Below are positions 13,238-40,942 of a stretch of DNA of 64,000 nt, one piece after another. The notes under the pieces are model-generated. The model made no database searches. It saw nothing but the letters and a program-made list of their open reading frames with translations, and was not told where the DNA came from. The position numbers were made by a program, and so were the translations under genes. Each line of letters opens with the position of its first letter. The stretch's first letter is position 1. The DNA lies in IMG/VR virus record IMGVR_UViG_3300017613_001944, positions 1 through 64,000 of that record, one strand, 5' to 3'. This DNA comes from a virus.

Positions 13238-13493
13238 AGTAGCTTGTGCCATTGAGAACCTTGCAAAGAGTATGGATAGAATGGCGCTGTGTCAGCTATT
13301 CGATGCTGGCATTATCACACTGGATGAAGCGAGAGACTTGCTTGGTCTTCCCGAGGTCACAGAACACCGTCGCCTACAGTTACGTCGTGCAACAAACTTT
13401 ACCTACAACAGTGCATTGGTCCTACCGGGTTATGCACTGAGCGAGATTGGTGTAAGGCGTGAACAGGAGCCCTCAAAGAATGAGCCTGAATGA
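13230..13493 (+). CDS. Hypothetical protein upstream of terminase
   Basis: Coupled ORF; GIITLDEARDLLGLP helix-turn-like segment. Confidence 0.5.
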   Translation: MDKVACAIENLAKSMDRMALCQLFDAGIITLDEARDLLGLPEVTEHRRLQLRRATNFTYNSALVLPGYALSEIGVRREQEPSKNEPE

Positions 13494-15237
13494 CGAAGAG
13501 AGATACATCATCTCTGAGGCATCCAAGGGGAATATGGGCCTCTTTATAGAGTACTATTTCCGTCTCCCGTTTTCAGGAACCTGGTTCACTACGGAAGATC
13601 GTGTTGAGCAATACGACATTCTCCATCAGGTGTGGGTAGGATTGGGCAAGCCGGATGAGATATTCGACGCGGAGATAGGGGACAAGCTAGCTGAGATAAG
13701 GATTACGTGGGACCCCTACTATGGCGAGTATCCCATGTTCCTCCTTCACCACGGTTTCAAGACACTGGAGTGGATGCAGAAGTTCCTGTCTCCAGGCGTC
13801 ACCCACGGCGTGGCTACTACTGGGACTGGATCGGGTAAGACTGCCGGGGTAGCCGTTTATGCACTGGCATGTTGCGCCGTGATCCCAGGGTTCAGGTTCC
13901 ACAACGCTGCCCCTACTCAGTACCACGCTAACTTGATGTTGGGAGAGATCACCAAGTGGGTTGGGACTGACGCTGACAAGTTCCGCAAGTTCATCAAGTT
14001 GAGCAAGGGAGCCAATGAGCTGTGGAATGAGAGAGAGGGCTATCCGGTAATCACCATTCAGTCTCCTCTCAATCCCAAGATACAATCCTCATTCTCTTGC
14101 CAGACTGTAGGTCAGAATGCCAATAGCATCCTGGGGAGGGAGCAGGACTGGATCAACATTGAGGAAGCGCAGTTGATGTATAACATCACTGATGCGGAGC
14201 CGAAGCTAGCCACTCGTTTACGTGGCACCAGGGCCACTGGTTTGCCACGCTGGTCCAAGCAAACCTGGATCTCAAACCCCGGAGATAATCCCGAGTTCAT
14301 TGGTCTCATCGAAAAGTACAAGGAATTGGAAAAGGACGGGATGGCGGGGGTCTTGGTTCTTGAGGATGTACCATCAGATGTCAATCGTTACATCACCAAA
14401 CGCCAACTAGAGAAGCAGCGCTTGACCATGAGTCAGCGGGAGATTGACAGGTGGATGGGTGGACAGATGTCTGCGGTAAGAGAAGATTCTGAGATCACCA
14501 CCGCAATGCTGGAAGCCTGCAAGAGCGACGAGCTCACCAAGGAGGTGGATAAGGTGGGCAAGTTTGCCGATGACCTTGGCCTGGTGCGCTATGAGCTGCC
14601 CCATGAACCTGACAGACACTATGTGGTGGTGGGTGATGTTGGGAAGAGCCCACGATCTGCCTTGAGCAGTATGAACGTCCCGGCTATAATGGTCTTTGAT
14701 GTGACCAACTTCCTAGAGGAGCCCTGTAGATTGGTGGCATTACGATGGATAGATGGCAAGGGATCTTACGAGCCGTTCGTCACGTCTATGAAGTATCTGA
14801 TCCTCAAGTACAGGGCCAGGGGCTATTACGACGCGGGTAACGTACAGACTGCCTTTGAGGATGTGGGCGGCTTCGAGGATGTTCCCTACACGGAGCCTGT
14901 CAGCTTTGCTGGTCACGCCTCCATTAAAAAGTGGGCTGTGGCAGTAACAAGCATCTTGATGCAGAATGGATTGTTTGAGTGGCCCTACATAAAGGCGCTA
15001 TGGTATCAGGGCAGGATCTTCAGAGTCGCCTCCAAGAAAAATCCCGATGACCTGATAGCCTGTCTCTTGGTATTCTCGAGGGTACTACAGATAGAGGGAA
15101 CACTGTGGAACAGGTTTGTGAGCAGATTCGATTGGGACGTGGAGGACATTAAAGAGGATGAAGTGGACGAAGAGGATGATTACGAAGTTTCGCGTGGCCC
15201 TGTTTTTGATAGGCACACAAGAATACCGACGCGATAA
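13480..15237 (+). CDS. terL: Terminase large subunit
   Basis: Walker A GTGSGKT, Walker B WINIEEA, coupling motif WISNP, RNase H-like VVVGDVG and DDLI; upstream of portal. Confidence 0.85.
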   Translation: MSLNDEERYIISEASKGNMGLFIEYYFRLPFSGTWFTTEDRVEQYDILHQVWVGLGKPDEIFDAEIGDKLAEIRITWDPYYGEYPMFLLHHGFKTLEWMQKFLSPGVTHGVATTGTGSGKTAGVAVYALACCAVIPGFRFHNAAPTQYHANLMLGEITKWVGTDADKFRKFIKLSKGANELWNEREGYPVITIQSPLNPKIQSSFSCQTVGQNANSILGREQDWINIEEAQLMYNITDAEPKLATRLRGTRATGLPRWSKQTWISNPGDNPEFIGLIEKYKELEKDGMAGVLVLEDVPSDVNRYITKRQLEKQRLTMSQREIDRWMGGQMSAVREDSEITTAMLEACKSDELTKEVDKVGKFADDLGLVRYELPHEPDRHYVVVGDVGKSPRSALSSMNVPAIMVFDVTNFLEEPCRLVALRWIDGKGSYEPFVTSMKYLILKYRARGYYDAGNVQTAFEDVGGFEDVPYTEPVSFAGHASIKKWAVAVTSILMQNGLFEWPYIKALWYQGRIFRVASKKNPDDLIACLLVFSRVLQIEGTLWNRFVSRFDWDVEDIKEDEVDEEDDYEVSRGPVFDRHTRIPTR

Positions 15238-20450: not shown

Positions 20451-23400
20451 ATGGGACTTCTAACAGGAACAAGACGCGGATTAATAGGCGGAACAAGAAT
20501 AAGACCCTTCGACTTCGACCTGGATGCCACCACCTTCACCGCAGGGATGGCAAAGCGTACTGCGCCAGGCCCCTTCACCGCCGCCCCGATTGTGCAGGGG
20601 ACTTGGGCATCTGAGGTGACGACCAGGGACCAGCTTACCGGTCCCGTTGCAACAGCTGTCCATGATCTTTTTGAGGACACTGGCGACGCCTATCAAGGCA
20701 CTTTTGTTTTTTGGGTAACGCCAGAGTGGGACGGTGATGATGGAAAAGAGCACCGGTTAGTTGGGTTAGGCAATCATGCCTACGTTTTCAAGAGTACTGG
20801 TGGCTACCTTGTCTTTATGTTCAACGATGATGGAGCTTGGTCTAGTACGAGCGTTGATATTTCTGGCTGGTCGGCAGGTGCTACTTATAATGTGGTGGCC
20901 AGATGGGATGTCAAGAACACGCTAGATGGGACTAATTATGCCTGCATTTCCATCAATGATGTTCATTCTTTTGGATACACAACAGCAATAACTCCAGCCG
21001 ACATGGATAGGGTGCTGGTTGGGGATTACTCAAACAACAAGCCACCCAATGCCATCATCGAAGGACTCACCATCTACCGCCGCCCCCTCTTCGACGGCAC
21101 TTACGGCGTGGACGCCAACAGCGGAGTGGATGAGATCAACGCCATCTACGCGGCGGGTGCTGGCGCAGACCCGTGCTTGATAACGGGTTCGTGGGATGCG
21201 GTGTTCTGTCTGCCCACTGACAGCGCGGTAGGCGCGTTGGCGACGGGAACGGGTGAGGCGTGGAGCCACCCGCACAGTTCGGCGGTACTGAACCACTGGA
21301 TAGCGGAGGATGGCTATTACGGTGGTGGGCAGTGGGCGCTTATCGGTAACGCATCCAATACAGGGGTCAACTGCGGAAGCGCGGCGGCTTTGGATGATTT
21401 ACCACTGGCTGACTTTACCGTGGAAGGTTGGTTCCGCTGTGATGGGGGTGGAAGTGGTCACGACGGGGCGCTTGTATGGAAAAGCGGTGGATGGGACACT
21501 GACGGATTTTATCTTAATATCTACAATGGATATATCTCTGTAAGAATCAATTTTAACAATACTGATGTCGTGATGAACACTACCCCGACCTACAACGACA
21601 GTGCTTGGCATCACTGGGCGCTAGACTGGGATCAGGGAACTCTCACTGCCACACTATACGTGGATGGTAAAGAGGAGGCCACCGGCACGGCTGTCGGTGC
21701 GTATCAATCAGATGCAGCCGCAGAGTTCAGGATTGGAGTAGAGGGTGATTGGGGCAATCCGTTCAATGGCGCTATGGGTTGGGTGCGTCTTTCTGATGTT
21801 AGGCGCTACACAGCCGATTTCTTACCTTCCCGCGCATTTCCTGGTGCTGACGGTAACACTGTTGAGGCGTGGAATATAAACGACGGAACCGGCGCAACAG
21901 TGGTTGCACAAGTCACATCGCCGGGGAACGACGGAACCGCTGCCAATCCCGAGTGGGAGCAACAGTGGTGGCCCACCGGCACGCCGGTGATCGCGCCGTG
22001 CTTGAACTTGACAGCAGATTGGGCAAATGTGAATGGTGGATCAGGGGCCAATATTGACGATATGCCAACAGGTGATTTTACGGCAGAGCTTTACTTTTGC
22101 TATACAGATGCTGTTGCCTGGAATGTTATTGCTCAGAAGAAAACGGGGGGACTGGGCTGGTCCCTTAGTTTTGGCAGCAGTAATAAAACGCTCTTTACTA
22201 CTTTTGAATTTAATACAACAGATGCGGCTTCAGAAACAGTGGCTAATACAGTCCAACCTGGTAGATGGTATCACATCGCAGTCACTTTTGATGGCGGCAC
22301 AACCGATACGCCTATAATCTATGTGAACGGAATAAACAGATCGTCTTATTCGACTGCTGGTGTTGGTGTGTACCAAGCTGATGCTGCACAGAACTTTCTT
22401 GCCAGTAATGCAGCGACTAGAAATTTTAGATATGGCTGGCTTCGCCTCTCTGATTCAATTCGATACACTGATACCTTTGTTCCCAACAGCAGGGCCAACC
22501 CGCCAGGAAATGACGCCAATGCACAATTGCTTTGGAATATGGACGACGGAGAAGGCACAACCGTTACAGATACAAGTGGAAACGCTTATCACGGCTCTAT
22601 GTCGGCGGCAACTTCCGAGGGCTGGCTCAACACCCCCGACATGCCCACAGTCGCACCCGGCGCACGCGAATACCAGTGGGGCTACGCCATCGGCAGCGAC
22701 GGCGCTAACGACGGGGTGATCCAGAACTTGGCAGGACTGAGCGCGGGTGATGATTTCGTGGCTCGCATCCCCATTCGGTATGAGGATGTGAACGCGCAGC
22801 CGAGCATCCTTGTGTACGACGAGATTGGCGCGGCTAATATCACCAACTTCCTTGGACCCAAGCTCACAGGCGTTCACAGCGGTGGGAACAACAGCGCAAC
22901 TCTCATCGTCGCGACAGGCGCTTTCCCTCAGAGCCTAATAGGAGCTGCACTATACAACATCACCGATGGATCAAGCACTACCATCACCGCTGTGTCAGGA
23001 GACATGACGACGATCACAGGTGTGTTGTCTGGCGGCACCGACGACGATTGGGACACGAACGATGTGTTTATGATCGTCCCTGATCCGACGTGGGTGTGGT
23101 GCGAGACGTTCACCTGGGAGCTTCCGGCAGGCTGTACGGAGATGAGCGTGCATCTGCGTAACGCGGCGGGGTTGGGCGTGCTGTACTGGAACCAGGCGGA
23201 GGTTCAGGAGAATCTTGTCACTAATCCGTCAATGGAAGATCAGCGGTTGTGGGACATTGATCTTGAAACAGCAGACTTTTCCCAGTTCGACGCCACCACG
23301 GATGTGGACGGAGATATGACAGTGGGAGGCGCTGGCGCATTAGCCGGTTCTTCTAACGGCATCTCGTTCCTTGTTGATGATGCTAACGTCATGTATGCTG

Positions 23401-24782
23401 ACAAGAACCAGACTAACCCAGCGTCTGACGAGTTTAGGCTCCGCTTTTTTGTTGACCCTAACGGGTATACGCAAAACGACACTCAGGAAACAAGGTTGGC
23501 GCAGTGGCTGGATACCGGGGCTGGACTTTACACATGCATTATCGCTCTTAGGGATGATGCAGGAGCGCCGTCCTTCAAGATGCACTATTGCGATGACGCC
23601 GGTTACGGAGGCGGTGACGTTTCGGCAGAAATCACGGATGATCCACACTATGTAGAGTTCCACGTTGTTAGAGCGACAGGCGCTGTCGCCGCTGATGGGA
23701 CGGTACAGTGGTGGATTGATGGAGTGGACCAGGGGACAGTCACAGGTATAGACAACTGGGACCTGTTCGCAAACATGGACGTAGTTCGTGTGGGGGCAGA
23801 AGCAGTTGGGACTGGCGGATCAGGTACGATCTTTATTGACGAGATCACGGCTAACGACACAGGAGAAGAAATTGGACCTACGTACATTCCGATGGGGTGG
23901 AGTAATTCAGGTCTTGGTGCAGGGGATTCGGTTCAAGATAATGCAGAGCCGCATTCTGACTCGTCTTGCGTGGAATTTGTTACCGCACCGAACGCTTCTG
24001 CACTTTATTACAGCGTTAGTTTTGCTCCGGCTCCGGCGTTCGTTGGCATAGGTGGGTGGGCGCGTGAAACCGCAGGCAATATTATGTTGCGCGATGCTAG
24101 TCAACGAGCGATTCAAAACACACTCAGCACTAGAGCAGAGCTTGAAGCCTCTGGCGATGTGTGGCAACACCTTACTGGTGTTGTGAGACAAGATAGTGGC
24201 GGTGGCTGGTTTGCTTTGCGTAGTCATGAAGCCAGCTCCAGTGGTCGTTTTGATGACGTTTATGGTTTCCGTCTCGACGACGTATCCCTCACCGTCACCC
24301 CCGCGTCGGAGGCGAACAGCCTGGAAAGCGGCGGGATTCGGGTGGATGGAACGGATGACTTAGCTCAGCCCCTTTTAGGAATGACGCCAACGCGATTCCG
24401 CATTCGCTGGCGTTGTATTCCAAGGCACGGCGCAGGCGATTTTGAAAAGTTCGGCGGTGATGTATGGATGTATGCTTGGCAGGGTGTGGGCGGCGAATAT
24501 CTCTATGTGGATTGTGTGTCTGACACAACCATTAGGCTCGGTTTTGACGATGGCGGGGGTTTTCACGGCGCAAACTGGGACGCAACGGGAGTTATTGCAG
24601 CCGATACGGAATACCTGTTTGAGATTAGAACTGTTCCTACTCGAATGCAGCTTCTTGTTGATGGTGTTGTAAGGTCTACAATAAATACACCGATAAACTT
24701 TGGTGACTTTCCCGCCAATATCCATTGGGGTGTGGATGCTTGGTCGCTGGGTCAAATTGACGCCGTATTCCTTGAGCCATAG
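20451..24782 (+). CDS. Large multi-LamG (lectin-like) virion protein, 1443 aa
   Basis: Repeated FTVEGW/WHHWA/LYVDG/FNGAMGWVRLSD and FTAELY/WYHIAVT/IYVNG/WLRLSD units. Confidence 0.75.
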   Translation: MGLLTGTRRGLIGGTRIRPFDFDLDATTFTAGMAKRTAPGPFTAAPIVQGTWASEVTTRDQLTGPVATAVHDLFEDTGDAYQGTFVFWVTPEWDGDDGKEHRLVGLGNHAYVFKSTGGYLVFMFNDDGAWSSTSVDISGWSAGATYNVVARWDVKNTLDGTNYACISINDVHSFGYTTAITPADMDRVLVGDYSNNKPPNAIIEGLTIYRRPLFDGTYGVDANSGVDEINAIYAAGAGADPCLITGSWDAVFCLPTDSAVGALATGTGEAWSHPHSSAVLNHWIAEDGYYGGGQWALIGNASNTGVNCGSAAALDDLPLADFTVEGWFRCDGGGSGHDGALVWKSGGWDTDGFYLNIYNGYISVRINFNNTDVVMNTTPTYNDSAWHHWALDWDQGTLTATLYVDGKEEATGTAVGAYQSDAAAEFRIGVEGDWGNPFNGAMGWVRLSDVRRYTADFLPSRAFPGADGNTVEAWNINDGTGATVVAQVTSPGNDGTAANPEWEQQWWPTGTPVIAPCLNLTADWANVNGGSGANIDDMPTGDFTAELYFCYTDAVAWNVIAQKKTGGLGWSLSFGSSNKTLFTTFEFNTTDAASETVANTVQPGRWYHIAVTFDGGTTDTPIIYVNGINRSSYSTAGVGVYQADAAQNFLASNAATRNFRYGWLRLSDSIRYTDTFVPNSRANPPGNDANAQLLWNMDDGEGTTVTDTSGNAYHGSMSAATSEGWLNTPDMPTVAPGAREYQWGYAIGSDGANDGVIQNLAGLSAGDDFVARIPIRYEDVNAQPSILVYDEIGAANITNFLGPKLTGVHSGGNNSATLIVATGAFPQSLIGAALYNITDGSSTTITAVSGDMTTITGVLSGGTDDDWDTNDVFMIVPDPTWVWCETFTWELPAGCTEMSVHLRNAAGLGVLYWNQAEVQENLVTNPSMEDQRLWDIDLETADFSQFDATTDVDGDMTVGGAGALAGSSNGISFLVDDANVMYADKNQTNPASDEFRLRFFVDPNGYTQNDTQETRLAQWLDTGAGLYTCIIALRDDAGAPSFKMHYCDDAGYGGGDVSAEITDDPHYVEFHVVRATGAVAADGTVQWWIDGVDQGTVTGIDNWDLFANMDVVRVGAEAVGTGGSGTIFIDEITANDTGEEIGPTYIPMGWSNSGLGAGDSVQDNAEPHSDSSCVEFVTAPNASALYYSVSFAPAPAFVGIGGWARETAGNIMLRDASQRAIQNTLSTRAELEASGDVWQHLTGVVRQDSGGGWFALRSHEASSSGRFDDVYGFRLDDVSLTVTPASEANSLESGGIRVDGTDDLAQPLLGMTPTRFRIRWRCIPRHGAGDFEKFGGDVWMYAWQGVGGEYLYVDCVSDTTIRLGFDDGGGFHGANWDATGVIAADTEYLFEIRTVPTRMQLLVDGVVRSTINTPINFGDFPANIHWGVDAWSLGQIDAVFLEP

Positions 24783-25282: not shown

Positions 25283-25651
25283 ATGATTGTGCCAGATGCG
25301 TATTCTCTTAAAATGATTATCAATATCCTTGCTGATGGGCGTACTGTCTCGTCACCAGGTCCCAGGGCGGCGGAGACAGGTACTTTAACGGAGGGGTATG
25401 GCGGCTTACCGTTCCTGGTGAGCCCCGGCTCAACCACGCCTGTTGGCCTTGGCACGATCACTAGACCAAAGTTTGTCGGGGTGTGGGGGGATGAGGGGAT
25501 TAGCTTCAAAACCTCTGGCAGCGGAGATGAGATCAGCGCCAACCCCTTCGCCTTCATCGCGAATATCAGTGATGGTATGGATGTCGTCAGTCTTCAGATT
25601 GTTAACGCAGATACAGTCTCTCATAACGTGATAGTTATGGCGGCAGAGTAA
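25283..25651 (+). CDS. Hypothetical (probably structural) protein
   Basis: AGGAGG RBS; beta-rich. Confidence 0.65.
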   Translation: MIVPDAYSLKMIINILADGRTVSSPGPRAAETGTLTEGYGGLPFLVSPGSTTPVGLGTITRPKFVGVWGDEGISFKTSGSGDEISANPFAFIANISDGMDVVSLQIVNADTVSHNVIVMAAE

Positions 25652-25884
25652 TGACTAAAAGAAAGACCACTAAGAAAAAGAAGTGGATCGGCAAGGCTTC
25701 CAAGAGTATCAAGAAGAGGGGTACTGCTGGCAGCTTTACCGCATATTGAAAGAGGGTGGGATATGGTGGCGTGACCACCGCCTGTATCGCCCAAGGTCTC
25801 AGGAGTAAAAATCCGTCTATCCGTAAAAAGGCACAATTCGCCAAGGCAAGTAGGACTATAGCGCGGAGGAAAAAGAAGAAATGA
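25651..25884 (+). CDS. Small Lys/Arg-rich protein with in-frame TGA at codon 33 (candidate selenoprotein; alternatively a pseudogene)
   Basis: MTKRKTTKKKKWIGKASKSIKKRGTAGSFTAY[TGA]KRVGYGGVTTACIAQGLRSKNPSIRKKAQFAKASRTIARRKKKK; TAATG and ATGA coupling at both ends. Confidence 0.65.
25754..25792 (+). promoter_or_regulatory. SECIS-like stem-loop downstream of in-frame TGA (25747-25749)
   Basis: Upper stem GGTGG/CCACC with CGTGA loop 20 nt after TGA; lower stem GGGT..GATAT/GTATCGCCC. Confidence 0.5.
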
Positions 25885-26276
25885 TTCCGGTTATTAAGAC
25901 TAAAGAGGATATCCTGACTGTGATGCGGCAGAACCGGCGATGGCGTCGGCGTCAGCGCATCTTTGCACTGCGACAGTGTGTGAAAACCCTGGGGCTCCTG
26001 CGCCAAAAGCTGGAGATAGATGCCAACGAAGGCTTTAGCATCCGTAGGCCATTACTCCTTATGTTGAAGAGGGAGGAAAAGATCTGGCAGGAACGGGGCG
26101 GCGAATGGCCTTTAAAGAAAGGGAAAAAACTGCCAGCAGAGAAGAAAGTAATAACAACGGGTCCCGCTAGGAAAATGGCTAAAGAGCATGATGTACCACT
26201 AGCCATACTTGAAGGGACAGGAAAGAATGGAAAGATCACCGTGAAGGATGTAAGGGAATATGTCCAAGCCCAGTAG
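25881..26276 (+). CDS. Basic protein with C-terminal E3-binding (peripheral subunit-binding) domain
   Basis: TTGPARKMAKEHDVPLAILEGTGKNGKITVKDVREYV matches PSBD consensus. Confidence 0.8.
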   Translation: MIPVIKTKEDILTVMRQNRRWRRRQRIFALRQCVKTLGLLRQKLEIDANEGFSIRRPLLLMLKREEKIWQERGGEWPLKKGKKLPAEKKVITTGPARKMAKEHDVPLAILEGTGKNGKITVKDVREYVQAQ

Positions 26277-26613
26277 TGTCAAGATAGTACAGGGTGACAC
26301 GGTTTATGATACCGTACATGCTGCGTGGCTGTCCAATGGTCAGCCATCTCAGTTTGAGCGTTACGGAGAGTTTGGTGGAGCTCTATACAGGGTGCTAGAC
26401 ACCACAGAAACGTATCCAGATTTCTACCAGTTCGGTTCACTGGGGCCAACAGTGTTCAGTGAGGACAGCGCCAGTGAAAGGCCAACCGAAAGAGGTTGGC
26501 ATATCCTCAATAGACGTTATCACTACTTGAAGGCGAAGTGGAAGTTCAATGGGAGGGTCAAGATAACCGCCCCCGAACTTCCGAATGAGTTGAGTCCAGA
26601 TGAAACAGCGTAG
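26260..26613 (+). CDS. Hypothetical protein
   Basis: Overlap-coupled ORF. Confidence 0.6.
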   Translation: MSKPSSVKIVQGDTVYDTVHAAWLSNGQPSQFERYGEFGGALYRVLDTTETYPDFYQFGSLGPTVFSEDSASERPTERGWHILNRRYHYLKAKWKFNGRVKITAPELPNELSPDETA

Positions 26614-26908
26614 TGATACTCTCAGGTTCAACAGCGAAGGCCAGGTAGTTCTTGGTGATATAAGAAAACCTGGACATGACTATCTGTGTGATATGTGCGC
26701 CGAGTTATTTGAGGTGAGATACAGCCAGGACAAGAAACCTATTGCCGTGACCTGTCCCATCTGCGGTTCTGGACGCACAAACAAGGTGTTGAATATGCCA
26801 GCCACCAGCATTTGGTGGAAAGATGCTATGTCTAGCAGTGATGTGGGGGACTTGACTCCCAGAATGAGACGTGCATCAAAGAACAGGCATATTCAAAGAG
26901 ATGAGTAG
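26600..26908 (+). CDS. FmdB-like zinc-ribbon protein
   Basis: DYLCDMCAELFEV...TCPICGS...KVLNMP. Confidence 0.7.
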   Translation: MKQRSDTLRFNSEGQVVLGDIRKPGHDYLCDMCAELFEVRYSQDKKPIAVTCPICGSGRTNKVLNMPATSIWWKDAMSSSDVGDLTPRMRRASKNRHIQRDE

Positions 26909-31379: not shown

Positions 31380-32567
31380 ATGGCTGGGTTACAAATGCCA
31401 AATGAGACCAGGTTTGGCTTGGGCATTCAACAGGGAGGTGGAGGCCAAGGTGTCTCTGACTACTTGAAGATGGCCCTGGGCTATGAGCATGTGGTCTCGA
31501 ACAACGACAACTTTTCATATTTCCCTCTAACCGACGTTGGTATCTCCCCTGTTAAAACTATGGGAACTCTTCCACCGGAGATTGGTGGACGAGCCCTGGC
31601 GACAGGAGCTTATGCAACCGGCACTTGGGCTGCTGGCCCAGTGACAATGATCCCACGCTTGGACAATCGGCTGGGGTGGTTGCTATTGGCTGGAATGGGG
31701 GATGTCAGCACAGTTGCGGATACGAAAGCTGAGAATCTCGCCATCCTTGGCGGGGTACACGGCGCTGATGCTGGTATCAACAGCCACATCTTCCAGTTCA
31801 ACATTGACGATCAGTACTTCGTCCCGTGGCTCACGCTACGTCGTTTGCTTCCGCATTCGACCACGGCGCTGCGCTTGGGCGAGACGTTCCAAGATGGAAA
31901 GATGGCTACCTTCACGCTCACGGCAACCGCCGGAGCGCCCTTGCAAGTAGACGTTGACTTCCTGGCTAGATTGAAGCAGAGTAACTACATCTTTGACTTT
32001 GATCCAAGCTGGGGTACGTTCGTCAACGATGACTTTGACAAGTTCGGCGTTACGAGTTGTGATGGTCACTTTAACGTGGAAGACGTGGCATTCGATGTCA
32101 CTGCGGTTACGATCACGGTAGGTAACATCTTGTTGCCTCCAACCCAATCAATCATCATAGGAACCACACATCCTGTTGACTTCCCGAATCTCAACAGGAC
32201 GATGACGGTGACGGCTTCCTTCCTGGTGAGCACTTGGGACTTCTATGTCAGCACTTTCGCTGGGTCTGCGGTTACGGCTACAGATTCCAATGTTGAGTGT
32301 GCGGTTTACAAGGCAGACATAGATGTGATGTTGGCGAGTCAAGTTAACATCACCGGATCTGAACCGTATCGTATTCGGATACTGTCCAACCCGAACGAGG
32401 ATAATGCGGCTTGGACTGTTCAACCCGTTAGGATCATGCCTAACAGACCAGTGGTTGTTCAGGCTAACTGCACCGTCCTGGCGTTGGAGGGATCAAGTTG
32501 GGAGAACCATCCGGTTTTCATCGTTCTTCAAAACGACAAAGCCGACTACAACCTTCCAACACCATAG
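31380..32567 (+). CDS. Putative tail tube (major tail) protein
   Basis: Position before chaperone/TMP; beta-rich; AGGAGG RBS. Confidence 0.65.
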   Translation: MAGLQMPNETRFGLGIQQGGGGQGVSDYLKMALGYEHVVSNNDNFSYFPLTDVGISPVKTMGTLPPEIGGRALATGAYATGTWAAGPVTMIPRLDNRLGWLLLAGMGDVSTVADTKAENLAILGGVHGADAGINSHIFQFNIDDQYFVPWLTLRRLLPHSTTALRLGETFQDGKMATFTLTATAGAPLQVDVDFLARLKQSNYIFDFDPSWGTFVNDDFDKFGVTSCDGHFNVEDVAFDVTAVTITVGNILLPPTQSIIIGTTHPVDFPNLNRTMTVTASFLVSTWDFYVSTFAGSAVTATDSNVECAVYKADIDVMLASQVNITGSEPYRIRILSNPNEDNAAWTVQPVRIMPNRPVVVQANCTVLALEGSSWENHPVFIVLQNDKADYNLPTP

Positions 32568-33376: not shown

Positions 33377-33717
33377 ACCCCCTTCTACAGCATCTCGATG
33401 TACTGGAGAACGCAGTTCTTGAGTGGTTAGAGAGGAGCTTCTATGAGACGGCTGACCACGAGCTCCAGAAAGCTCTACGTAAACAAGCGCTGCTCCCAGT
33501 AAATATGCAAGCCGAAATGCCGGAGGCTTACCGCATCTGGCGTACCTGTCAAAGACATAGTGAGTTGTTCTGGCCTGGTGGTATAGCCAATCAACCGGCA
33601 ACCCTTATGTTAGAGATGGAGGCTTGCGAGAGAGTTTCAAACCAGTTCCAGGATCAAATCAAGCGAATGTACGGCATTATCGAGGATAAAGGCAGTGGCG
33701 CTTCGCCCATCGGATAA
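33325..33717 (+). CDS. Frameshift extension of tail chaperone (lambda T-like)
   Basis: -1 frame relative to 32891-33376, no clear own RBS; WPGGIANQP motif. Confidence 0.65.
   Translation: MVVEPREIGGGSEDGGVNPLLQHLDVLENAVLEWLERSFYETADHELQKALRKQALLPVNMQAEMPEAYRIWRTCQRHSELFWPGGIANQPATLMLEMEACERVSNQFQDQIKRMYGIIEDKGSGASPIG
33352..33382 (+). promoter_or_regulatory. Programmed -1 frameshift signal
   Basis: In-frame G GGG GAA at 33352-33358, then GGGGG-AGTAAA-CCCCC hairpin 8 nt downstream; -1 frame open to 33717. Confidence 0.7.
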
Positions 33718-36700
33718 CCCAGGGAGAGCTCTGCAAGACAGGGCAGAACAACGCGCTCAACAGCTTATGCGTGAGCGGCGTGGTTGGTCTTATTCTGCTG
33801 CACTCAACTTTGCTATGAATGAGTTGACGTATCAGCAGCAGCATGTCGTCCTGGATGTTGAGACAACGGGTGTAAAGAAGGGCGAGAACGAGCTCATCCA
33901 GATTGGTGCCAGGAAGTTTGGTCCTGGTGGAAAACCCGGAGAGACCTATCAAACCTTTGTTGATCCAGGTGGTCCAATTCCCCAGGACATCACTAATCTA
34001 ACCGGCATCAGCACCCAGATGGTAATGGGTGCTCCCTCTCCACAACAGGCAGTCTCAGAACTGTCTCAGTTTGTAGGCAATCTCCCCGTCGTTGGTCACA
34101 ATGTTGGCTTTGACATTGGCTTCCTGGGGATGCACGGCTTTGAAGCATCAACAGCAGCAGACACTCTAGCTGCATCCAGAGCCGCTATGCCACAACGTCG
34201 CAGCCACTCTCTTGCCAACATCGCCGCAGAGCAGGGGTGGGGAATACAACAGCACGAGGCCATGGCTGATGTTGGCATGACCTCCTTACTTCATAGTCAG
34301 CTAGCAACAATGTATCAAGGAGGTGTTCCTCCACCGAGTGGACCACCTCCACCTGCAAACATCTCCCGCTCCATGGGACCCACGCAAAGGGCGTTGCCCC
34401 CAGCAGTGCACGGCGCTGCTATGCAGTTGGGGATAGACGCACAGCAGGCTTCTGAGATCGTCAGCTCGGCTGGTGGTGGATCTATCCGCCAGCAGATAGA
34501 AGCCGTACAACAGTTTGTATACAACAAGATAGGCAAACCCGCCCCCTTTGGCGGTAGTGCAGATCCCATGCAGGCTCTCTCCCCCACACAGTGGGTGCAA
34601 ACCACAGAGAGTGGGCGTGCGATGACACGCACCATGACACCCTTGCCATCATCCTTTGATCCAGCTAAAGCGCAGGAGACATGGGACCCAGGGCAGATAT
34701 CCTATCCTGGGAACAAGATGCAACTTGATCTTGAGCGCAGTCTTGGTGCTTCGATATGGCCTGTTCGAGGTGGGGCGATTCAGACGGGACTAGAAAAGCC
34801 TGAACAATTCCCCAAGCGAATTAAGCAAGCAATCTCGAACTATCAGCAGATTTATCTCAAGGACATGGAGATAGAGGAGGCTCCGTGGTTGACAGGGCCA
34901 ACCTCTCAAGCTCCCGAGAAGGGGCAGACTCTTCGCACTGCTGTGGTGTTTGGCGGCTTTGCTCCCGAGGGCATGTCCTACATTAAGCAGGATCTGGGCT
35001 CCGCCGGGGACTTCAAGTATCACAAGCTCCCTATTCCAGCAGGGGTGGTGCCAGAGGATATAGCTCCTGTCGGAACTGCATTTACTAGATCTCAGGGGGC
35101 ACAGCTATTCAAGGGGCACACCGGCATCAAGTTTGGTGACTGGGAAGAGCAGCATGTTCAGGACATTAGATTTGAGCCTGGAGCCATCAACCAGCCAGGC
35201 GCTCTACACGTCAGAATGGGAAGGGGCATTCCTCTAACACGCGGTATCGGCTACTCGATGCACTCTGGTAAGGAGTTGCTGGTGGGTGCCGATGTCGAGA
35301 AGATGACTGGCAGAAGCGACATCCAGGTGGTGAAAGCTGGTCCCAGGGATGTGCTTGGTCTGGCATTCCAGGCATACAGCTCCATGGCTCCAGCCGAATA
35401 CGAGAGGGTAACTGGCAAGCCGCGCCCTGCCACTTGGCAACAAGCTGCCGCAGATGAAGAGTCTATGGCAGCTTTTGATCGGATGGCTAGTGACAACGCC
35501 ACGATGCTCCAGTTCCCCGACCAAATTATCTCTAAAGCCAACCTTGAGGCTTTTAAAGAGGGCAATAGGATAGTTCCCGGCACATTAGAAGAGCTCGGCG
35601 GCGAGAGATACCGTGCCACCCTGGAGTATCCAGCGGTGGTAATGGATCTCTTTACCCAGTTCACCCGTGGGGCCTATGAGCATGGTCAACCATTTGTTGG
35701 GGAGGGTACTCTCCGGCGAATAAGAGACGCCAACCCTCAACTCTACAACCAGATGATGGGTGAGGGAAAGCAGCAGCGTGAGTGGAGACAGCAAAACGTC
35801 CAGGCATACACTGCCAGCAGAGGAATACCGGGATTAAGGCAAGCTCCAGACCAATACACTATGGCAAGGGATCTTCCCTGGACTAACATTACACAAGACG
35901 CTACTCGCAGAGCCATGAAGATCAGCGGTGTTGATCGCCCCGAGGATATCCCTTACGGCGCAGAACAAGCAGCACTGTTACAACGAATCCCTCTAACTCA
36001 CGAGGGTCGAGCCACAGGAGCTCTCGCCTTCGAGAGCCGTGGCAAGGATTATTTCTTCCCCCATCCCAGGCATGTCCCCGCCGTACCAGGGACCTTGGGC
36101 TATGAAGAACGAAGCGCCTATAGGCACCGCTACGCAAATCTACTCCAGGAACAAATGAGGTATCAAGAGACTGGTGAGGAGGAGCCGTATCGCTCTGCCC
36201 TTGCTGGTACAATGCTAGCTAGTCACCGTCTTGTAAGCTCCGGCGAATTTCTAAAGCGCACGCTGGGCGTAGAGCCACGAAGTCTATATGGTGGCATGGG
36301 TGCTGCATCTTTCGCCAATCTTCCCGAAGAGCTGTATATGCCAACAGAGGCTGCTGCAAGAGCCAGTGGTATCAAGGTTGGCACTCCCGAATATGAAAGA
36401 TTCCAGCGCAATTTCGAGTCAGGCGGTTATCAGTTTGCTGCCTCTGTATTCCGGGAGCCTACCACTGATACGGCGGGAGTGCTGGTGAAGGGACTGGTCA
36501 AGTGGATAGGCACACATCCAAACGAAACTCTTCGGGACGCACGTATACCAGTCTTGTCTGCGGAGATGGGCCAGACACTAAGAGGCGACTTTGACAAGGA
36601 CGCCTACACCATTGCCAGGGAGTGGGGCATTGATCTAGCAGATGCCCAAACTCTCAAGATACAAATGCGCGACTTCAATCTTTCAAATGCCCAGGCTGAC

Positions 36701-39700
36701 AAGGCAGGACAGCGAGACAAGCAATTCAAGGAGATTGGAAAGTTTGGCACTATTAGATCCATGCTGGATAGAATAGGCCAGAGAACAGCAATACCTCTTA
36801 GAGATGCTATTGGGCAGATGAGCGAGAGGTCCAGTGTCGGCAGACAGATGGGTTATGGCTACAATATTCAGCAAGAGCTAGAAATGTCGGCGGTAGATCC
36901 AGAATCCAAGGCAGCAGCAGAGCTATTGGGCTCCAATATGTATATGCAGGGCCAGGACTTTGAGAAGTGGAGCAAGGAGCTTGAAAGTCTGGTAGTGCAT
37001 CGCAGTGCCAACCTTGCAACAGGCGGTGCATATAATATCATTACTGGTGAGCCGTCACGCATCCCATTCGGCAGGTCAGAGACGGGAATGATGCTCTCTG
37101 CCATTAGGATGGGATCAAATCTCCCAGGCTTGAGCTCCAGAGAGAAGGCAGCAATGATGACCCCTGCTGGTAATGAGGGGCTTCGTGCAGCAGTGGAGGG
37201 AGCTCTTGAGTCTGGTGACATTGACTCAATAGCACACTTATTGGAGGGTGCTCTTCCCGGCGGGGCACAGGAATGGGGAGAGAATACATTATTAGGGCGA
37301 CAAGTGTTAGGTCGCGCAGCAGATTTAGGACAAAGGAAAGGTGCCAAAGGAATCCGTGAATCACTAGCAGAAATCGGCAGATCATTAAGGTCTGTCGGTG
37401 CAGTAAGACGTTCTTATCCATTTAAGGGACGTGTGGAGGCGCTTAGAGAAAGAATGCGTCTAGGCGGAGAGCCTCCATCACCCGTTATGCAGGCTCTCTT
37501 GCCTGGCAGCGAAGCGCCTCTGGATGTCTCAGGTATGACACCAGAGGAGCAAGATGCTATGGCTATAAAAGCAGCCTCAGCCTCCTCTGGTAGGGGGCAA
37601 GGGCAAACACCAGAAGAAACAAGACGATTCGCTGATCGACAAATGGAGTGGCAAGCTGAGATAGCAAGAGGTACCGCTGACCCAGCAAACTATCCCGATC
37701 TATTCCCAACGAAGGAAGAGTACGCGAGATACGCGGCTCAAAGAGCCGGGGCACCCCCACGCCCACCCGATCCGGCACGTTCTGCCGGTTCAGGCGGTAT
37801 GGGAGGTGGAAGATTACCGCCTGTCACCACCGCTACCCCAGATCCGTCAGATCCACGTCAGTCTGGTGAAGGTGATCCCAAGAAGTGGGTTGTCAACCTG
37901 AACTATGGTGCTGTGAAGATAGGAGACTTTAACCGAGCAATTGAGACAATGACCAGCCGACTTGGTGATTGGTCTGAAGAAATGGACCCGATTGTCACCG
38001 GCGGTAAGCAGTTCACAAAAGCCCAGCAGCAGATGACTGAGAAGTTAATCTCTGCACGCAGAACTCTCGAAAGAGCAGATAGAGGCGAGGGGGATTTTAC
38101 GTCTGCACAGATACAAGCTGCCCAGCAAGCTCTTGCCACGCCTGGTATGGGTGTTCTTGGGCAAGCAGAAGAGCAGATCACCAATCGCTGGTGGGGCCAG
38201 AGAATGGATCAGGGCGCAAGAGGGCGCGTAGGTCGCTTCTATGAGCGCTTTGGTTCACGAGGAATGGGAGACGCCTCACCAACAGAGCGCATGGAGCGCG
38301 GATTCAGAAGTGTATTCTCTGGATGGGAGCTCATGCGCTTACAGCGTATGTGGGGTCTGACTGGTGGACGAGCGTTTGGCGCTATGCCAGTTGCCGCAGA
38401 AGCACAGCAAGGTGCTATGCAAGCCGCCATGGTTGGACAGCCTATGGGCCAGTTTGGGATGGGCGATATCACTGCTGGCTTACTTGAGACGGGTGCAAGA
38501 CAACAACAGTTCCAGGTTCAGATGGGCACTGCTACTAACCAGGCTTGGGGCTGGATGCCTAGAGCTATGGCAAACACAGGACTGGGCACAGCGGCTGGCA
38601 TTGGATTACCTGCACTTGGCATGGGTGCTGCTGCTGGATGGGGAGCTGGGGTACTTGGACTTGGCGCTCTTTCTACTCCCCTTGGTTTAGGGGTTGCAGC
38701 AGGAGCGGGTATATATGGCGGGATCAACTATCTAAGAAATAGGCCAGAAGAGGACATAGATGTTGCGGCAGCGGAGCAACGAAAGCGAGATCTGACGCGA
38801 CAAATAGCGACACCTCAAGGGCTGGAGCGCTTCAGGCCACCGGGATGGATGGGTGGTGCCTTTGGCCCAAGCGTTGAAGGCTACTCTGAAGAACAAGCAG
38901 AGAGAGGCGAAACGATCCTTAGCGGAGAGCTAACTGGTCTTTCTGTTCCACAACGGATGAAGGCCATTCAGGAAGCATATCAATATGCTCCGCAATGGAT
39001 GGAGCCAACGGCTGCACAGGGCCTTGCTCAACAGTGGATGCGCTATGATCCCGAAGCAACTAACATCAGAGAAATCTACGAGGACCCACGCTTCGAGGCA
39101 ATGGCTGCACGCGGCACTGATGTTGAAACCTACGCTAAAATGGCAGAGGGTTTTGGTATGCGCCCAAGCCAAGCCTTTGATATTTACAGTATCATGGCTG
39201 GCGTGTCAGAGCAAGAGTTTGGTCCAGTTTCTGAGACTGCTCAATCGTGGATGGGACTTGGTAGAGCTGCTGGCATGAAGCCAGAAGACATCTTAAGTCG
39301 CTCCAAGCCAAGAACACAGACTCCTGGGGATACCCGGTGGGGTGATGTATATAATCCTGAGCGACTGGCGGGACCAAGATTGGAGCGATTGTCAGGCGAT
39401 CCGATGGTACAGCAAAGAGCGCAAGCTATCGAAGGTATGATGATACAGCGGCGCACAGCAGGGATGGAGATCCCGTTTGAACCCCCCACCACTGAAGCGG
39501 CGGTGATGGATATCTACCAAGGTGGGCAGATGCAGCTAGGCACTGCTGGATTGGGGCTTGCCAATCAGTTTATGGGAATGGGAGCTACTCCGCTAACTGC
39601 CGGGGCTGGTGCTGGTGCCGCAGAGCGTTACGGTATGATGGGGGTACGAGGTGTCAGTGGCTTTATGGGCGGGGACAGGAACATAATGGCTATGCTTGGT

Positions 39701-40942
39701 CAGGCCAATGTTCAAGGTCCATTCTCCCAGGTGAATGTCGGTGGTGGAATGCAATATAACGCAGGTCCACTGCGACAGGGCATCGAGGACGCCCTGGCAC
39801 AAGTCATGTCCCCAGAGGGAGCACAGAGTATAAGGGGAATGATGGGGGATATTCGCCCCTTAGTGGAACCAGAGACTGGCATGCAGATGGGTACCACTCG
39901 CATGTACGAGGGTTTCGCTGATGAATACCAGTTGCCTAGAGGCACAGATCAAGGAGCGTTTGATAAATATACTCAAATGCTGGTTACTGGTGGTAGACGT
40001 GACGTTGAGCGGGAAAAGGCCAGTCTCCAAGGTGACTTCCGAACATTCCAGCAAGATCAGCAAAGAACACAGCTAGAGTTACGCGGTGTATCTCAGTTCG
40101 GTGGGACCTTTGAGTCGCCCTACGGTGGTACATTAGATACCAAGGGCACCTTTGAGCTCACGCGGGAGATGAGAAATCTCTCCAGGACCTTCCAGGACTA
40201 TAACCAAGAGTACAATCAGGAGTCTCGACAACTGGGCTACAACCAGTTCCAAGAGAATTGGCAAGTACGAGCTCAGAGAATGCCTATCCAATTCCAGAGG
40301 CAGCGTGAAGACCTGGCTTTCCAGGGCAACCAGGCGGCTATGGGCTTCGGTTGGCAGATGGAAGACATCCAGGAGAACCTGCGCTTTGCCACTGGCAGGG
40401 ACAGGCGACGGCTATTACGCCAGCAAGAGCGTGCAGCCATCAGCTTTGGGATGGGACAGGGCCAGCGAGAAACACAGGCTGGACGAATAGACCAGAATGA
40501 GCGCTGGGCTGCTGAAGATCTTGAGCGACAGAAGCGACATTTTGAAGAGCGCTTCCGCTTACAGGATGATTACCAGGAAAGGTACCGTCAGTACACAGAA
40601 GAGCGTAGGGCAATAGAGGATCAGCTCCAAGAGATCCAGGAATTCAATGCCCAGTACAACTTAGAGGCTTCGACAGAGCAGCTAGACAAGTCCATCGCTC
40701 TCAACGAGCAGCTAAACGGGATACAAGAAGCATACACGGCAATGAACCAGGATCTCGAGAAGCAGGTTGGACTACAGCAACAGATCGTCAAGAACATCGA
40801 GTACTTGATAGCTCAATTTGCCGATGATGGTAGAGCAACCAACGCATTCAACGGTTTCATTTCACACATCGAGAACTCCTTCTCTCGGGAATCCGCCGAG
40901 ATAGGGCTGATGATCGACAGAATTTACGGCAACGATAGCTAG
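33695..40942 (+). CDS. Tape-measure protein fused to N-terminal DEDDh exonuclease and putative two-barrel RNA polymerase (2415 aa)
   Basis: LDVETTG/HNVGFD/HEAMAD; GQTLRTAVVFGGFAPEG, MHSGK, FREP, GDFDKD; Gly/Ala hydrophobic segment and long Q/E/R coiled coil; TMP locus. Confidence 0.8.
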   Translation: MALRPSDNPGRALQDRAEQRAQQLMRERRGWSYSAALNFAMNELTYQQQHVVLDVETTGVKKGENELIQIGARKFGPGGKPGETYQTFVDPGGPIPQDITNLTGISTQMVMGAPSPQQAVSELSQFVGNLPVVGHNVGFDIGFLGMHGFEASTAADTLAASRAAMPQRRSHSLANIAAEQGWGIQQHEAMADVGMTSLLHSQLATMYQGGVPPPSGPPPPANISRSMGPTQRALPPAVHGAAMQLGIDAQQASEIVSSAGGGSIRQQIEAVQQFVYNKIGKPAPFGGSADPMQALSPTQWVQTTESGRAMTRTMTPLPSSFDPAKAQETWDPGQISYPGNKMQLDLERSLGASIWPVRGGAIQTGLEKPEQFPKRIKQAISNYQQIYLKDMEIEEAPWLTGPTSQAPEKGQTLRTAVVFGGFAPEGMSYIKQDLGSAGDFKYHKLPIPAGVVPEDIAPVGTAFTRSQGAQLFKGHTGIKFGDWEEQHVQDIRFEPGAINQPGALHVRMGRGIPLTRGIGYSMHSGKELLVGADVEKMTGRSDIQVVKAGPRDVLGLAFQAYSSMAPAEYERVTGKPRPATWQQAAADEESMAAFDRMASDNATMLQFPDQIISKANLEAFKEGNRIVPGTLEELGGERYRATLEYPAVVMDLFTQFTRGAYEHGQPFVGEGTLRRIRDANPQLYNQMMGEGKQQREWRQQNVQAYTASRGIPGLRQAPDQYTMARDLPWTNITQDATRRAMKISGVDRPEDIPYGAEQAALLQRIPLTHEGRATGALAFESRGKDYFFPHPRHVPAVPGTLGYEERSAYRHRYANLLQEQMRYQETGEEEPYRSALAGTMLASHRLVSSGEFLKRTLGVEPRSLYGGMGAASFANLPEELYMPTEAAARASGIKVGTPEYERFQRNFESGGYQFAASVFREPTTDTAGVLVKGLVKWIGTHPNETLRDARIPVLSAEMGQTLRGDFDKDAYTIAREWGIDLADAQTLKIQMRDFNLSNAQADKAGQRDKQFKEIGKFGTIRSMLDRIGQRTAIPLRDAIGQMSERSSVGRQMGYGYNIQQELEMSAVDPESKAAAELLGSNMYMQGQDFEKWSKELESLVVHRSANLATGGAYNIITGEPSRIPFGRSETGMMLSAIRMGSNLPGLSSREKAAMMTPAGNEGLRAAVEGALESGDIDSIAHLLEGALPGGAQEWGENTLLGRQVLGRAADLGQRKGAKGIRESLAEIGRSLRSVGAVRRSYPFKGRVEALRERMRLGGEPPSPVMQALLPGSEAPLDVSGMTPEEQDAMAIKAASASSGRGQGQTPEETRRFADRQMEWQAEIARGTADPANYPDLFPTKEEYARYAAQRAGAPPRPPDPARSAGSGGMGGGRLPPVTTATPDPSDPRQSGEGDPKKWVVNLNYGAVKIGDFNRAIETMTSRLGDWSEEMDPIVTGGKQFTKAQQQMTEKLISARRTLERADRGEGDFTSAQIQAAQQALATPGMGVLGQAEEQITNRWWGQRMDQGARGRVGRFYERFGSRGMGDASPTERMERGFRSVFSGWELMRLQRMWGLTGGRAFGAMPVAAEAQQGAMQAAMVGQPMGQFGMGDITAGLLETGARQQQFQVQMGTATNQAWGWMPRAMANTGLGTAAGIGLPALGMGAAAGWGAGVLGLGALSTPLGLGVAAGAGIYGGINYLRNRPEEDIDVAAAEQRKRDLTRQIATPQGLERFRPPGWMGGAFGPSVEGYSEEQAERGETILSGELTGLSVPQRMKAIQEAYQYAPQWMEPTAAQGLAQQWMRYDPEATNIREIYEDPRFEAMAARGTDVETYAKMAEGFGMRPSQAFDIYSIMAGVSEQEFGPVSETAQSWMGLGRAAGMKPEDILSRSKPRTQTPGDTRWGDVYNPERLAGPRLERLSGDPMVQQRAQAIEGMMIQRRTAGMEIPFEPPTTEAAVMDIYQGGQMQLGTAGLGLANQFMGMGATPLTAGAGAGAAERYGMMGVRGVSGFMGGDRNIMAMLGQANVQGPFSQVNVGGGMQYNAGPLRQGIEDALAQVMSPEGAQSIRGMMGDIRPLVEPETGMQMGTTRMYEGFADEYQLPRGTDQGAFDKYTQMLVTGGRRDVEREKASLQGDFRTFQQDQQRTQLELRGVSQFGGTFESPYGGTLDTKGTFELTREMRNLSRTFQDYNQEYNQESRQLGYNQFQENWQVRAQRMPIQFQRQREDLAFQGNQAAMGFGWQMEDIQENLRFATGRDRRRLLRQQERAAISFGMGQGQRETQAGRIDQNERWAAEDLERQKRHFEERFRLQDDYQERYRQYTEERRAIEDQLQEIQEFNAQYNLEASTEQLDKSIALNEQLNGIQEAYTAMNQDLEKQVGLQQQIVKNIEYLIAQFADDGRATNAFNGFISHIENSFSRESAEIGLMIDRIYGNDS

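Follow-up and report, generated by a model that had tools for sequence, protein, structure and literature searches.

Candidate phage selenoproteins: an in-frame UGA at an invariant cysteine site followed by a conserved bacterial-type SECIS-like hairpin

Introduction

Recoding of UGA as selenocysteine (Sec) is well known in cells. Among viruses, the only selenoproteins named in the accessible text of a review of viral recoding are two poxvirus glutathione peroxidases (PMC8310308), and the words phage, virus and viral are absent from the accessible text of three prokaryotic selenoproteome surveys (PMC13188914, PMC9312934 and BSepDB, PMC13326102). A marine survey notes that viral sequences are absent or very few in the other families that it covered, selenoprotein families included (PMC9402790). 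Predicted tRNA-Sec genes occur in huge phages, for which the available portion of the source reports no selenoprotein gene (PMC10747093), and phage T7 evolved with an engineered Sec code fixed no Sec-specific adaptation, according to the available text of that study (PMC8923235). Here we describe a gene at positions 25651-25884 (+ strand) of a 64,000-nucleotide stretch of viral DNA (positions 1 to 64,000 of record IMGVR_UViG_3300017613_001944; hereafter the window), which is interrupted by a single in-frame UGA at a site where its relatives carry an invariant cysteine. The window is taken from an IMG/VR viral record of 82,211 bp that is estimated to be 84% complete. A natural phage selenoprotein was not found in the literature searched, as far as its accessible text goes; the sequences of the selenoprotein families GOS_A and GOS_B (PMC2398784) could not be compared, so the present family is possibly the same as one of them.

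By the standards of the field, namely the pairing of Cys and UGA forms together with a conserved bacterial selenocysteine insertion sequence (bSECIS), the sequences compared here constitute a predicted selenoprotein family in phages of several lineages. The UGA at codon 33 of the window gene is very probably decoded as Sec via host SelB and tRNA-Sec and an in-gene, bacterial-type SECIS hairpin.

Results

A small basic-protein gene interrupted by one UGA

The features of the gene in the window are as follows.

25651..25884, + strand: basic-protein gene, 77 codons plus stop, with one UGA read through; homologs align over both halves
25649..25653, + strand: TAATG, overlap of the start codon with the stop of the gene upstream (25283-25651), as seen in the sequence
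25747..25749, + strand: in-frame UGA, predicted selenocysteine codon for residue 33, at the position of the invariant family Cys
25783..25785, + strand: TGT, Cys45, the second invariant Cys, 11 residues after Sec33; candidate selenenylsulfide partner
25881..25884, + strand: ATGA, shared by the gene's own TGA stop (25882-25884) and the ATG (25881-25883) that opens the following gene (25881-26276)

The preliminary description had proposed a Lys/Arg-rich gene overlooked by the open reading frame (ORF) track, opening at TAATG, closing at ATGA and broken by one in-frame TGA, and the sequence at 25651-25884 bears this out. The start ATG (25651-25653) overlaps the upstream TAA (25649-25651), which suggests translation coupled with that of the upstream gene. 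The read-through product has 77 residues, of which 27 are Lys or Arg and none is Asp or Glu, with an isoelectric point of ~11.9 and a mass of ~8.6 kDa. A standard ORF listing breaks the gene into pieces of 32 and 42 aa, and the gene occupies the sole 229-nt hole in a run of genes whose other gaps are 9-14 nt. No other convincing TGA-interrupted gene was found in the window's 11 larger intergenic gaps. The large terminase gene is located at 13459-15237 and the tail-tube gene at 31380-32567, placing the small gene between them in the late, structural part of the genome. Deposited phages contain no close relative of this genome, as a megablast search with 12 kb returned no match. A 223-nt contig of a public marine-sediment run, possibly the sample of origin, is identical to window positions 25671-25893 with 0 differences, the TGA included.

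Relatives carry cysteine at the UGA site

In a tblastn search of deposited phages with the read-through protein, 39 records are matched by alignments that span the TGA position, and the residue aligned to the UGA is Cys in crAss001 gp45, in phage DAC17 and in an Aquificae hot-spring virus. At eight IMG/VR loci, Cys occupies both conserved positions in six, whereas one (L010) lacks both and one (L012) matches the N-terminal part only. We then used a degenerate DNA pattern, G-x-F-T-x-[aromatic]-TGY...G-V-T-x-x-C, and ran it again with TGA replacing TGY. The TGY pattern matches 76 viral contigs, which together with crAss001 gp45 and the Aquificae virus show that relatives carry Cys at codon 33. 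The motif FT.YCK, which the preliminary description had given for small basic phage proteins, is thereby verified, both in the pattern matches and in an alignment of 86 family proteins.

Residues G27, F29, T30, C33, G37, G40, V41, T42, C45 and A64 are invariant across the 86 aligned proteins, C33 being unvarying in all 60 Cys-form rows. This alignment (A2) and the tree derived from it omit 2 of the 28 Sec rows (L021 and L041, truncated) and 9 of the 69 Cys rows, namely five near-copies (L008, L109, L115, L117 and L127), three longer variants (L053, L055 and L099) and one sequence cut by a contig end (L069). The conserved Cys33 and Cys45 positions are a plausible pair: both are invariant in the 86 proteins and both are absent in L010, and they may form a Se-S or S-S link or share a metal site.

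Among the longer Cys-form relatives, L053 and L055 contain additional cysteines, some adjoining the second conserved Cys (C-E-C-I-C) and some in an extension of the C terminus, a possible sign of a metal- or disulfide-rich form of the protein.

The UGA is maintained with an open downstream frame

With TGA in place of TGY, the pattern matches five contigs in viral_contigs, 33 stretches in metagenome_contigs, all 33 of which show family motifs beyond the pattern itself, and two stretches in genome_contigs, one real and one a chance match lacking the frame. In addition to the window, TGA occupies exactly this codon in 39 public loci, with frame and protein conserved downstream. Some of these loci are the same contig filed twice, and collapsing the duplicates leaves 28 distinct 66-nt sequences, the window included. 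These 28 UGA forms have a mean column identity of 73% and come from contigs with GC contents of 0.32-0.60. In every one of them the frame past the UGA is open for 37-52 further codons, with G37, G40, V41, T42, C45 and A64 intact. The open and conserved downstream frame of all these UGA forms excludes sequencing error and pseudogene formation.

A covarying hairpin follows the UGA

Two nested features follow the UGA in the window.

25764..25780, + strand: conserved SECIS-like hairpin, stem of 6 bp formed by 25764-25769 with 25775-25780; RNAalifold consensus
25754..25792, + strand: extended two-tier stem-loop in the minimum free energy (MFE) fold of the window; lower tier specific to the window and not conserved

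In each of the 28 UGA forms a hairpin can fold in the same register, and its 5-nt N-G-U-N-A loop begins 20 nt past the UGA. Of these loops, 22 read CGUGA, five AGUUA and one UGUAA, and G at loop position 2 followed by U is present in 28/28. RNAalifold, given the alignment alone, returns a 6-bp hairpin as the sole consensus structure. The preliminary description had drawn the two-tier stem-loop at 25754-25792, and the MFE fold reproduces it; its upper 6 bp are conserved, while its lower tier is absent from the RNAalifold consensus. The apical loop CGUGA, proposed to begin 20 nt after the UGA with G at its second position, is recovered by the fold at 25770-25774. Counting from the U of the UGA, the loop G-U of the window falls at nucleotides 25-26, as compared with 23-24 in fdhF.

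Since two G-C pairs and the loop G-U are dictated by the invariant Gly-Val-Thr codons and are thus uninformative, we scored the four stem pairs that are not fixed by conserved residues (those involving the Thr codon's third base and codons 39 and 43 in full). All four pairs form in 18/28 UGA forms and three of four in the remaining 10/28; in 71 distinct Cys forms the corresponding figures are 0/71 and 14/71. The local MFE is -8.4 kcal/mol in the UGA forms by comparison with -2.9 kcal/mol in the Cys forms (Mann-Whitney p ~1e-11, a value that ignores relatedness). Among the UGA forms, 83.5% of stem cells are paired, a share that drops to 33-45% if the partners are shifted by 1-3 columns. In 26 cells both sides of the stem are altered, as against 7.4 +/- 2.5 in shuffles, none of 500 shuffles reaching 26. 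Pair 27:37 is CG in 14 forms, UA in 8, AU in 3 and GC in 1. The compensating changes, such as AGC/GCU, GGU/ACC and UCU/AGU, recode residues 39 and 43, giving the combinations Ser/Ala, Gly/Thr, Gly/Ser, Ser/Ser, Arg/Ser and Lys/Leu. Such covariation, which swaps amino acids at 39 and 43, has the appearance of an RNA constraint superimposed on the coding sequence.

The published bSECIS description specifies a stem of 4-16 bp, a loop of 3-9 nt with G among its first two positions, a distance of 16-37 nt from the UGA and an MFE <= -7.5 kcal/mol (PMC13188914). This consensus is fitted in every respect by 24/28 UGA forms, the window among them (6-bp stem; spacing 20 nt; constrained MFE -17.9 kcal/mol, with -7.2 for the bare hairpin). 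The TGA-bearing homologs with a conserved hairpin that the preliminary description had sought as support thus exist as 28 distinct sequences with a covarying stem.

Cys and UGA forms alternate in the tree

A maximum-likelihood tree of the 86 proteins, based on 69 columns, is poorly resolved, with two major clades at 99% support that contain Sec forms in 8/38 and 18/48 rows, respectively. The best tree needs 14 changes between the Cys and Sec states, and the well-supported branches alone force at least three. Two pairs of sister sequences, L014 (Sec) with L100 (Cys) and L045 (Sec) with L105 (Cys), differ in the hairpin: the stem is complete in both Sec members, as against 2/4 and 0/4 pairs in L100 and L105, respectively. 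Judging from this distribution, the predicted Sec forms and the Cys forms have interconverted several times.

The genetic code and the decoding machinery

TGA is an ordinary stop elsewhere in the window, as previously stated, where it ends 14/65 long non-overlapping ORFs; it is also the terminal stop of 9/28 family UGA-form genes, that at 25651-25884 included. Coding density under the standard code is 0.78-0.96 across 16 UGA-form loci and 0.96 in the window. The 82-kb record contains 0 tRNA genes, hence neither tRNA-Sec nor a suppressor tRNA, and SelB was not found in it; a search of the window and the remaining 18 kb against Rfam at gathering thresholds gave no match. Across 28 related loci, a single tRNA-Arg is the only tRNA. 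As the phage lacks both tRNA and SelB, decoding of the UGA has to rely on the host.

The real match in genome_contigs is a 105.7-kb contig of an Anaerolineales metagenome-assembled genome (MAG) that carries a UGA form. The window is collinear with this contig over 9.7-46 kb at ~40-70% amino-acid identity, with the small gene in the same place. The MAG encodes tRNA-Sec with anticodon UCA (71.9 bits), SelB (329), SelA (562) and SelD (380), all above curated cut-offs. Of the host machinery invoked in the preliminary description, selA, selB, selC and selD are thus all present in the MAG of a syntenic relative, and are tied to that phage by binning only.

Both ends of the 105.7-kb contig (G001:C13; loci L151 and L152) match window 40-46 kb at different identities and have in common a 93-nt repeat, 94.6% identical between its copies at positions 1-93 and at ~97.6 kb. 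A phage of ~97.6 kb, assembled with wrap-around or from mixed strains, may account for this contig.

Protein family and matches to virion proteins

Pfam and PHROGs scans of the read-through protein returned no match. A search with a natural Cys-form relative gave nine proteins, all of them unnamed or annotated 'hypothetical protein', and no Pfam domain. The family profile matches residues 373-424 of crAss001 gp45, both cysteines included (E = 3e-16), and the window protein itself matches gp45 by tblastn (E = 2e-4). The virion packages gp45, known as cargo protein 1 (PDB 7qog and others; PMC10172136); its residues 425-552 are portal-bound inside the capsid, its N-terminal part is already in the tail, and it is proposed to be ejected first. 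A search of viral_contigs for UGA forms with the shorter, crAss-type spacing gave nine pattern matches, 0 of them real.

In addition, 17/86 family members weakly match PF25632 (Fusello_VP2_Capsid; best E = 6e-5) through their N-terminal ~20 residues (K-K-W-I-Q-K-A-V-K-K-P-G type). When ten members were scanned singly, eight matched at 13.6-20.7 bits, below the curated 27 bits, and again with N-terminal residues only; the window protein gave no match to PF25632.

The extreme basicity of the product, the late-gene position and the matches to gp45 and VP2 together suggest a small virion-internal protein located on DNA or near the portal.

Neighbouring genes and the context of a relative

Two genes upstream, 20451-24782 (+) encodes a 1443-aa protein with Laminin_G_3/concanavalin-like lectin domains (E = 2e-23), which is probably a receptor-binding or fibre protein. 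The next gene downstream, 25881-26276 (+), encodes a 131-aa Arg-rich protein whose C-terminal residues 92-125 match the peripheral subunit-binding domain E3_binding (PF02817; E = 4e-10, above cut-off); neither a lipoyl nor a catalytic domain is present in it.

At 26600-26908 (+), a 102-aa protein carries a CxxC...CxxC zinc ribbon with Cys at all four positions; its weak match to Zn_ribbon_8, the FmdB-type domain, reaches 29 bits and is below the cut-off of 34. Among the selenoproteins of a marine survey is a putative regulatory protein of the FmdB family with a CxxU motif (PMC2398784).

Just after the tail-tube gene, 33695-40942 (+) encodes a 2415-aa protein whose N-terminal domain is an exonuclease of RNase_T/DnaQ type (E = 6e-23 in Pfam; E = 5e-34 to the PHROG 'DNA polymerase exonuclease subunit'). 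No match was obtained for its other ~2200 residues. It is unusual for a tail module to contain an exonuclease fused to such a giant protein.

In the Aquificae Joseph's Coat Spring virus (L002), the Cys-form gene (1447-1674) lies between the genes for thymidylate synthase and ribonucleotide reductase. Being outside a structural module, this location shows that the family does not have one uniform genomic context.

Discussion

Our comparative analysis points to a division of labour in which the phage would supply only the mRNA signal, a 5-6 bp stem with an N-G-U-N-A loop 20 nt past the UGA, and host SelB and tRNA-Sec would decode UGA33 as Sec. Where selenium or a Sec-competent host is missing, translation would end after 32 residues.

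The same sequences could be read in other ways. If the UGA were read through independently of selenium, with the hairpin stimulating near-cognate decoding as Trp, Cys or Arg, a mixture of the 32-residue peptide and the full-length protein would result. The conservation of both the UGA and the hairpin downstream of it accords with this, sequence comparison leaves the inserted amino acid undistinguished, and the Sec machinery of this phage's own host is not established. We nevertheless consider selenium-independent read-through improbable. The UGA sits exactly at the invariant Cys, the classic Sec/Cys signature, whereas a read-through switch could use any codon. In spacing, loop size and G-U, moreover, the hairpin agrees with the bSECIS consensus. 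TGY would be a cheaper route to Cys, yet UGA plus hairpin arose at least three times. Furthermore, the usual misreading of UGA in bacteria is as Trp, which would replace the invariant Cys. Somewhat less probable again is that the UGA is a true stop. The locus would then make a 32-aa peptide, with or without a second one of ~42 aa initiated internally, and the hairpin would have some other role such as mRNA stability or re-initiation. A GTG at 25756 of the window does open a 42-aa ORF, and gene callers would split the gene in this way. But past the UGA the 28 forms have no conserved start codon: the codons that follow are AAG/AAA and the like, and the other forms do not have the window's GTG at 25756. 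Moreover, across 86 sequences the two halves line up, within a single frame, with Cys-form proteins that are one chain, and there is no reason why the codon of the invariant Cys should have become the break point in at least three lineages.

The two remaining explanations are effectively refuted. One base change, from TGT or TGC to TGA, would be enough for an error of sequencing or assembly or for a pseudogene with a newly acquired nonsense codon, and the window is a metagenome assembly; however, the TGA is common to 27 other distinct sequences of many assemblies, at 73% identity and with the downstream frame open, and the public-run contig is identical to the window here. Genome-wide use of TGA as a sense codon (tables 4 or 25) has precedent in the stop-codon reassignments known in phages, but TGA terminates the long window ORFs and family genes counted above, the standard-code density of the window is as high as 0.96, no suppressor or other tRNA is encoded in the 82-kb record, and Trp or Gly would be unexpected at an invariant Cys.

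Several observations weigh against decoding of UGA33 as Sec, or weaken individual arguments for it. The window hairpin by itself (MFE -18.6 kcal/mol) is not exceptional, with z = -0.22 and 75/200 shuffles folding equally well. In the window, 716/2321 TGA trinucleotides precede some hairpin that passes loose bSECIS-like criteria, and just 6/2321 have a hairpin in the exact register of the TGA at 25747. The hairpin argument from the single sequence is weak, and we judge the feature real because of the comparative evidence and not because of the window fold. Within that evidence, the loop G-U is also set by the invariant Val codon, so that conservation of the loop is inseparable from protein constraint, and 4/28 UGA forms have an internal stem mismatch that leaves them short of at least 4 contiguous base pairs. 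An independent-pairs test of Sec against hairpin has three supported pairs, none of them opposite, and is underpowered (p >= 0.25). The marine-sediment run with the identical contig may be the sample of origin, and at depth 2 it carries little weight; no RNA runs are listed with the stretch, which is evidence neither way. In regard to the host, the Anaerolineales link is through binning only, as both contig ends match phage genes and the contig is apparently all-phage, and a search for a spacer-like match of 20 kb of the related contig in its MAG found only the contig itself. SelB is above cut-off in 59/101 genomes sampled from Anaerolineales (~58%), and being so common there, the Sec machinery of the MAG adds little.

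If Sec is indeed inserted at codon 33, its role in the protein is a more tentative matter. The product may be a virion-internal 'cargo' type protein associated with DNA or the portal, with a redox-active or stabilising Se-S bond between Sec33 and Cys45, although our confidence in this is less than even. A broader scenario, doubtful at present, is that tailed phages of several lineages have repeatedly turned a structural Cys of a packaged, DNA-associated virion protein into Sec, with a new SECIS each time. The Se-S link, its redox potential being lower than that of a disulfide, could then hold in the cytoplasm or in habitats that are reducing and anoxic, or serve as a redox latch that is released at ejection. 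Were this true, host Sec machinery and selenium supply would condition virion assembly and host range, and the Sec/Cys state of the gene would indicate whether the host is capable of Sec insertion.

Confirmation of Sec insertion would mean that phages exploit host SelB and tRNA-Sec through SECIS elements of their own, and that Sec is selectable in a small structural or DNA-associated protein and not just in an oxidoreductase. It would also mean that phage gene callers systematically split such genes, and that selenium supply or host Sec competence may gate a late phage protein. For studies of SelB recognition, the family would offer a compact natural SECIS in 28 variants with built-in compensatory changes.

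Comparison with known systems

Comparison with crAss001 gp45 reveals that the segment matching the present family lies directly before the portal-bound domain (425-552). By contrast with the small free-standing gene of the window, the crassvirus motif is an internal segment of an 842-residue protein, is always in the Cys form and has a loop 4 residues shorter, and the structure does not resolve the matching segment. Fusellovirus VP2, a DNA-binding virion protein of SSV1, is similar to the present product in size and basicity, whereas the matches to it miss the Cys/Sec core.

A link between phages and Sec was also drawn in the T7 study, which asked if virions can be stabilised by Se-containing bonds (PMC8923235). 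In the accessible text of neither this study nor that on huge-phage tRNA-Sec is a natural phage selenoprotein gene reported, and the present phage differs from the huge phages in having no tRNA at all.

A mechanistic parallel is provided by bacterial selenoproteins, with E. coli fdhF as the archetype: these share with the window gene a UGA at a Cys-homologous site, an in-ORF hairpin just downstream, a small loop with G then U near its 5' side, a spacing range (16-37 nt) that includes the 20 nt seen here, and dependence, predicted for the window gene, on selA/B/C/D (PMC13188914). The present gene differs in being phage-borne and in encoding a tiny basic product without a recognisable oxidoreductase fold or a UxxC/CxxU motif. 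The poxvirus glutathione peroxidases of molluscum contagiosum and fowlpox are, like the predicted protein described here, virus-encoded and served by host Sec machinery, and the fowlpox SECIS is located in the coding region (PMC8310308). They are, however, captured host enzymes of eukaryotic viruses with a eukaryotic-type SECIS, while the candidate described here belongs to a phage-native family with a bacterial-type SECIS.

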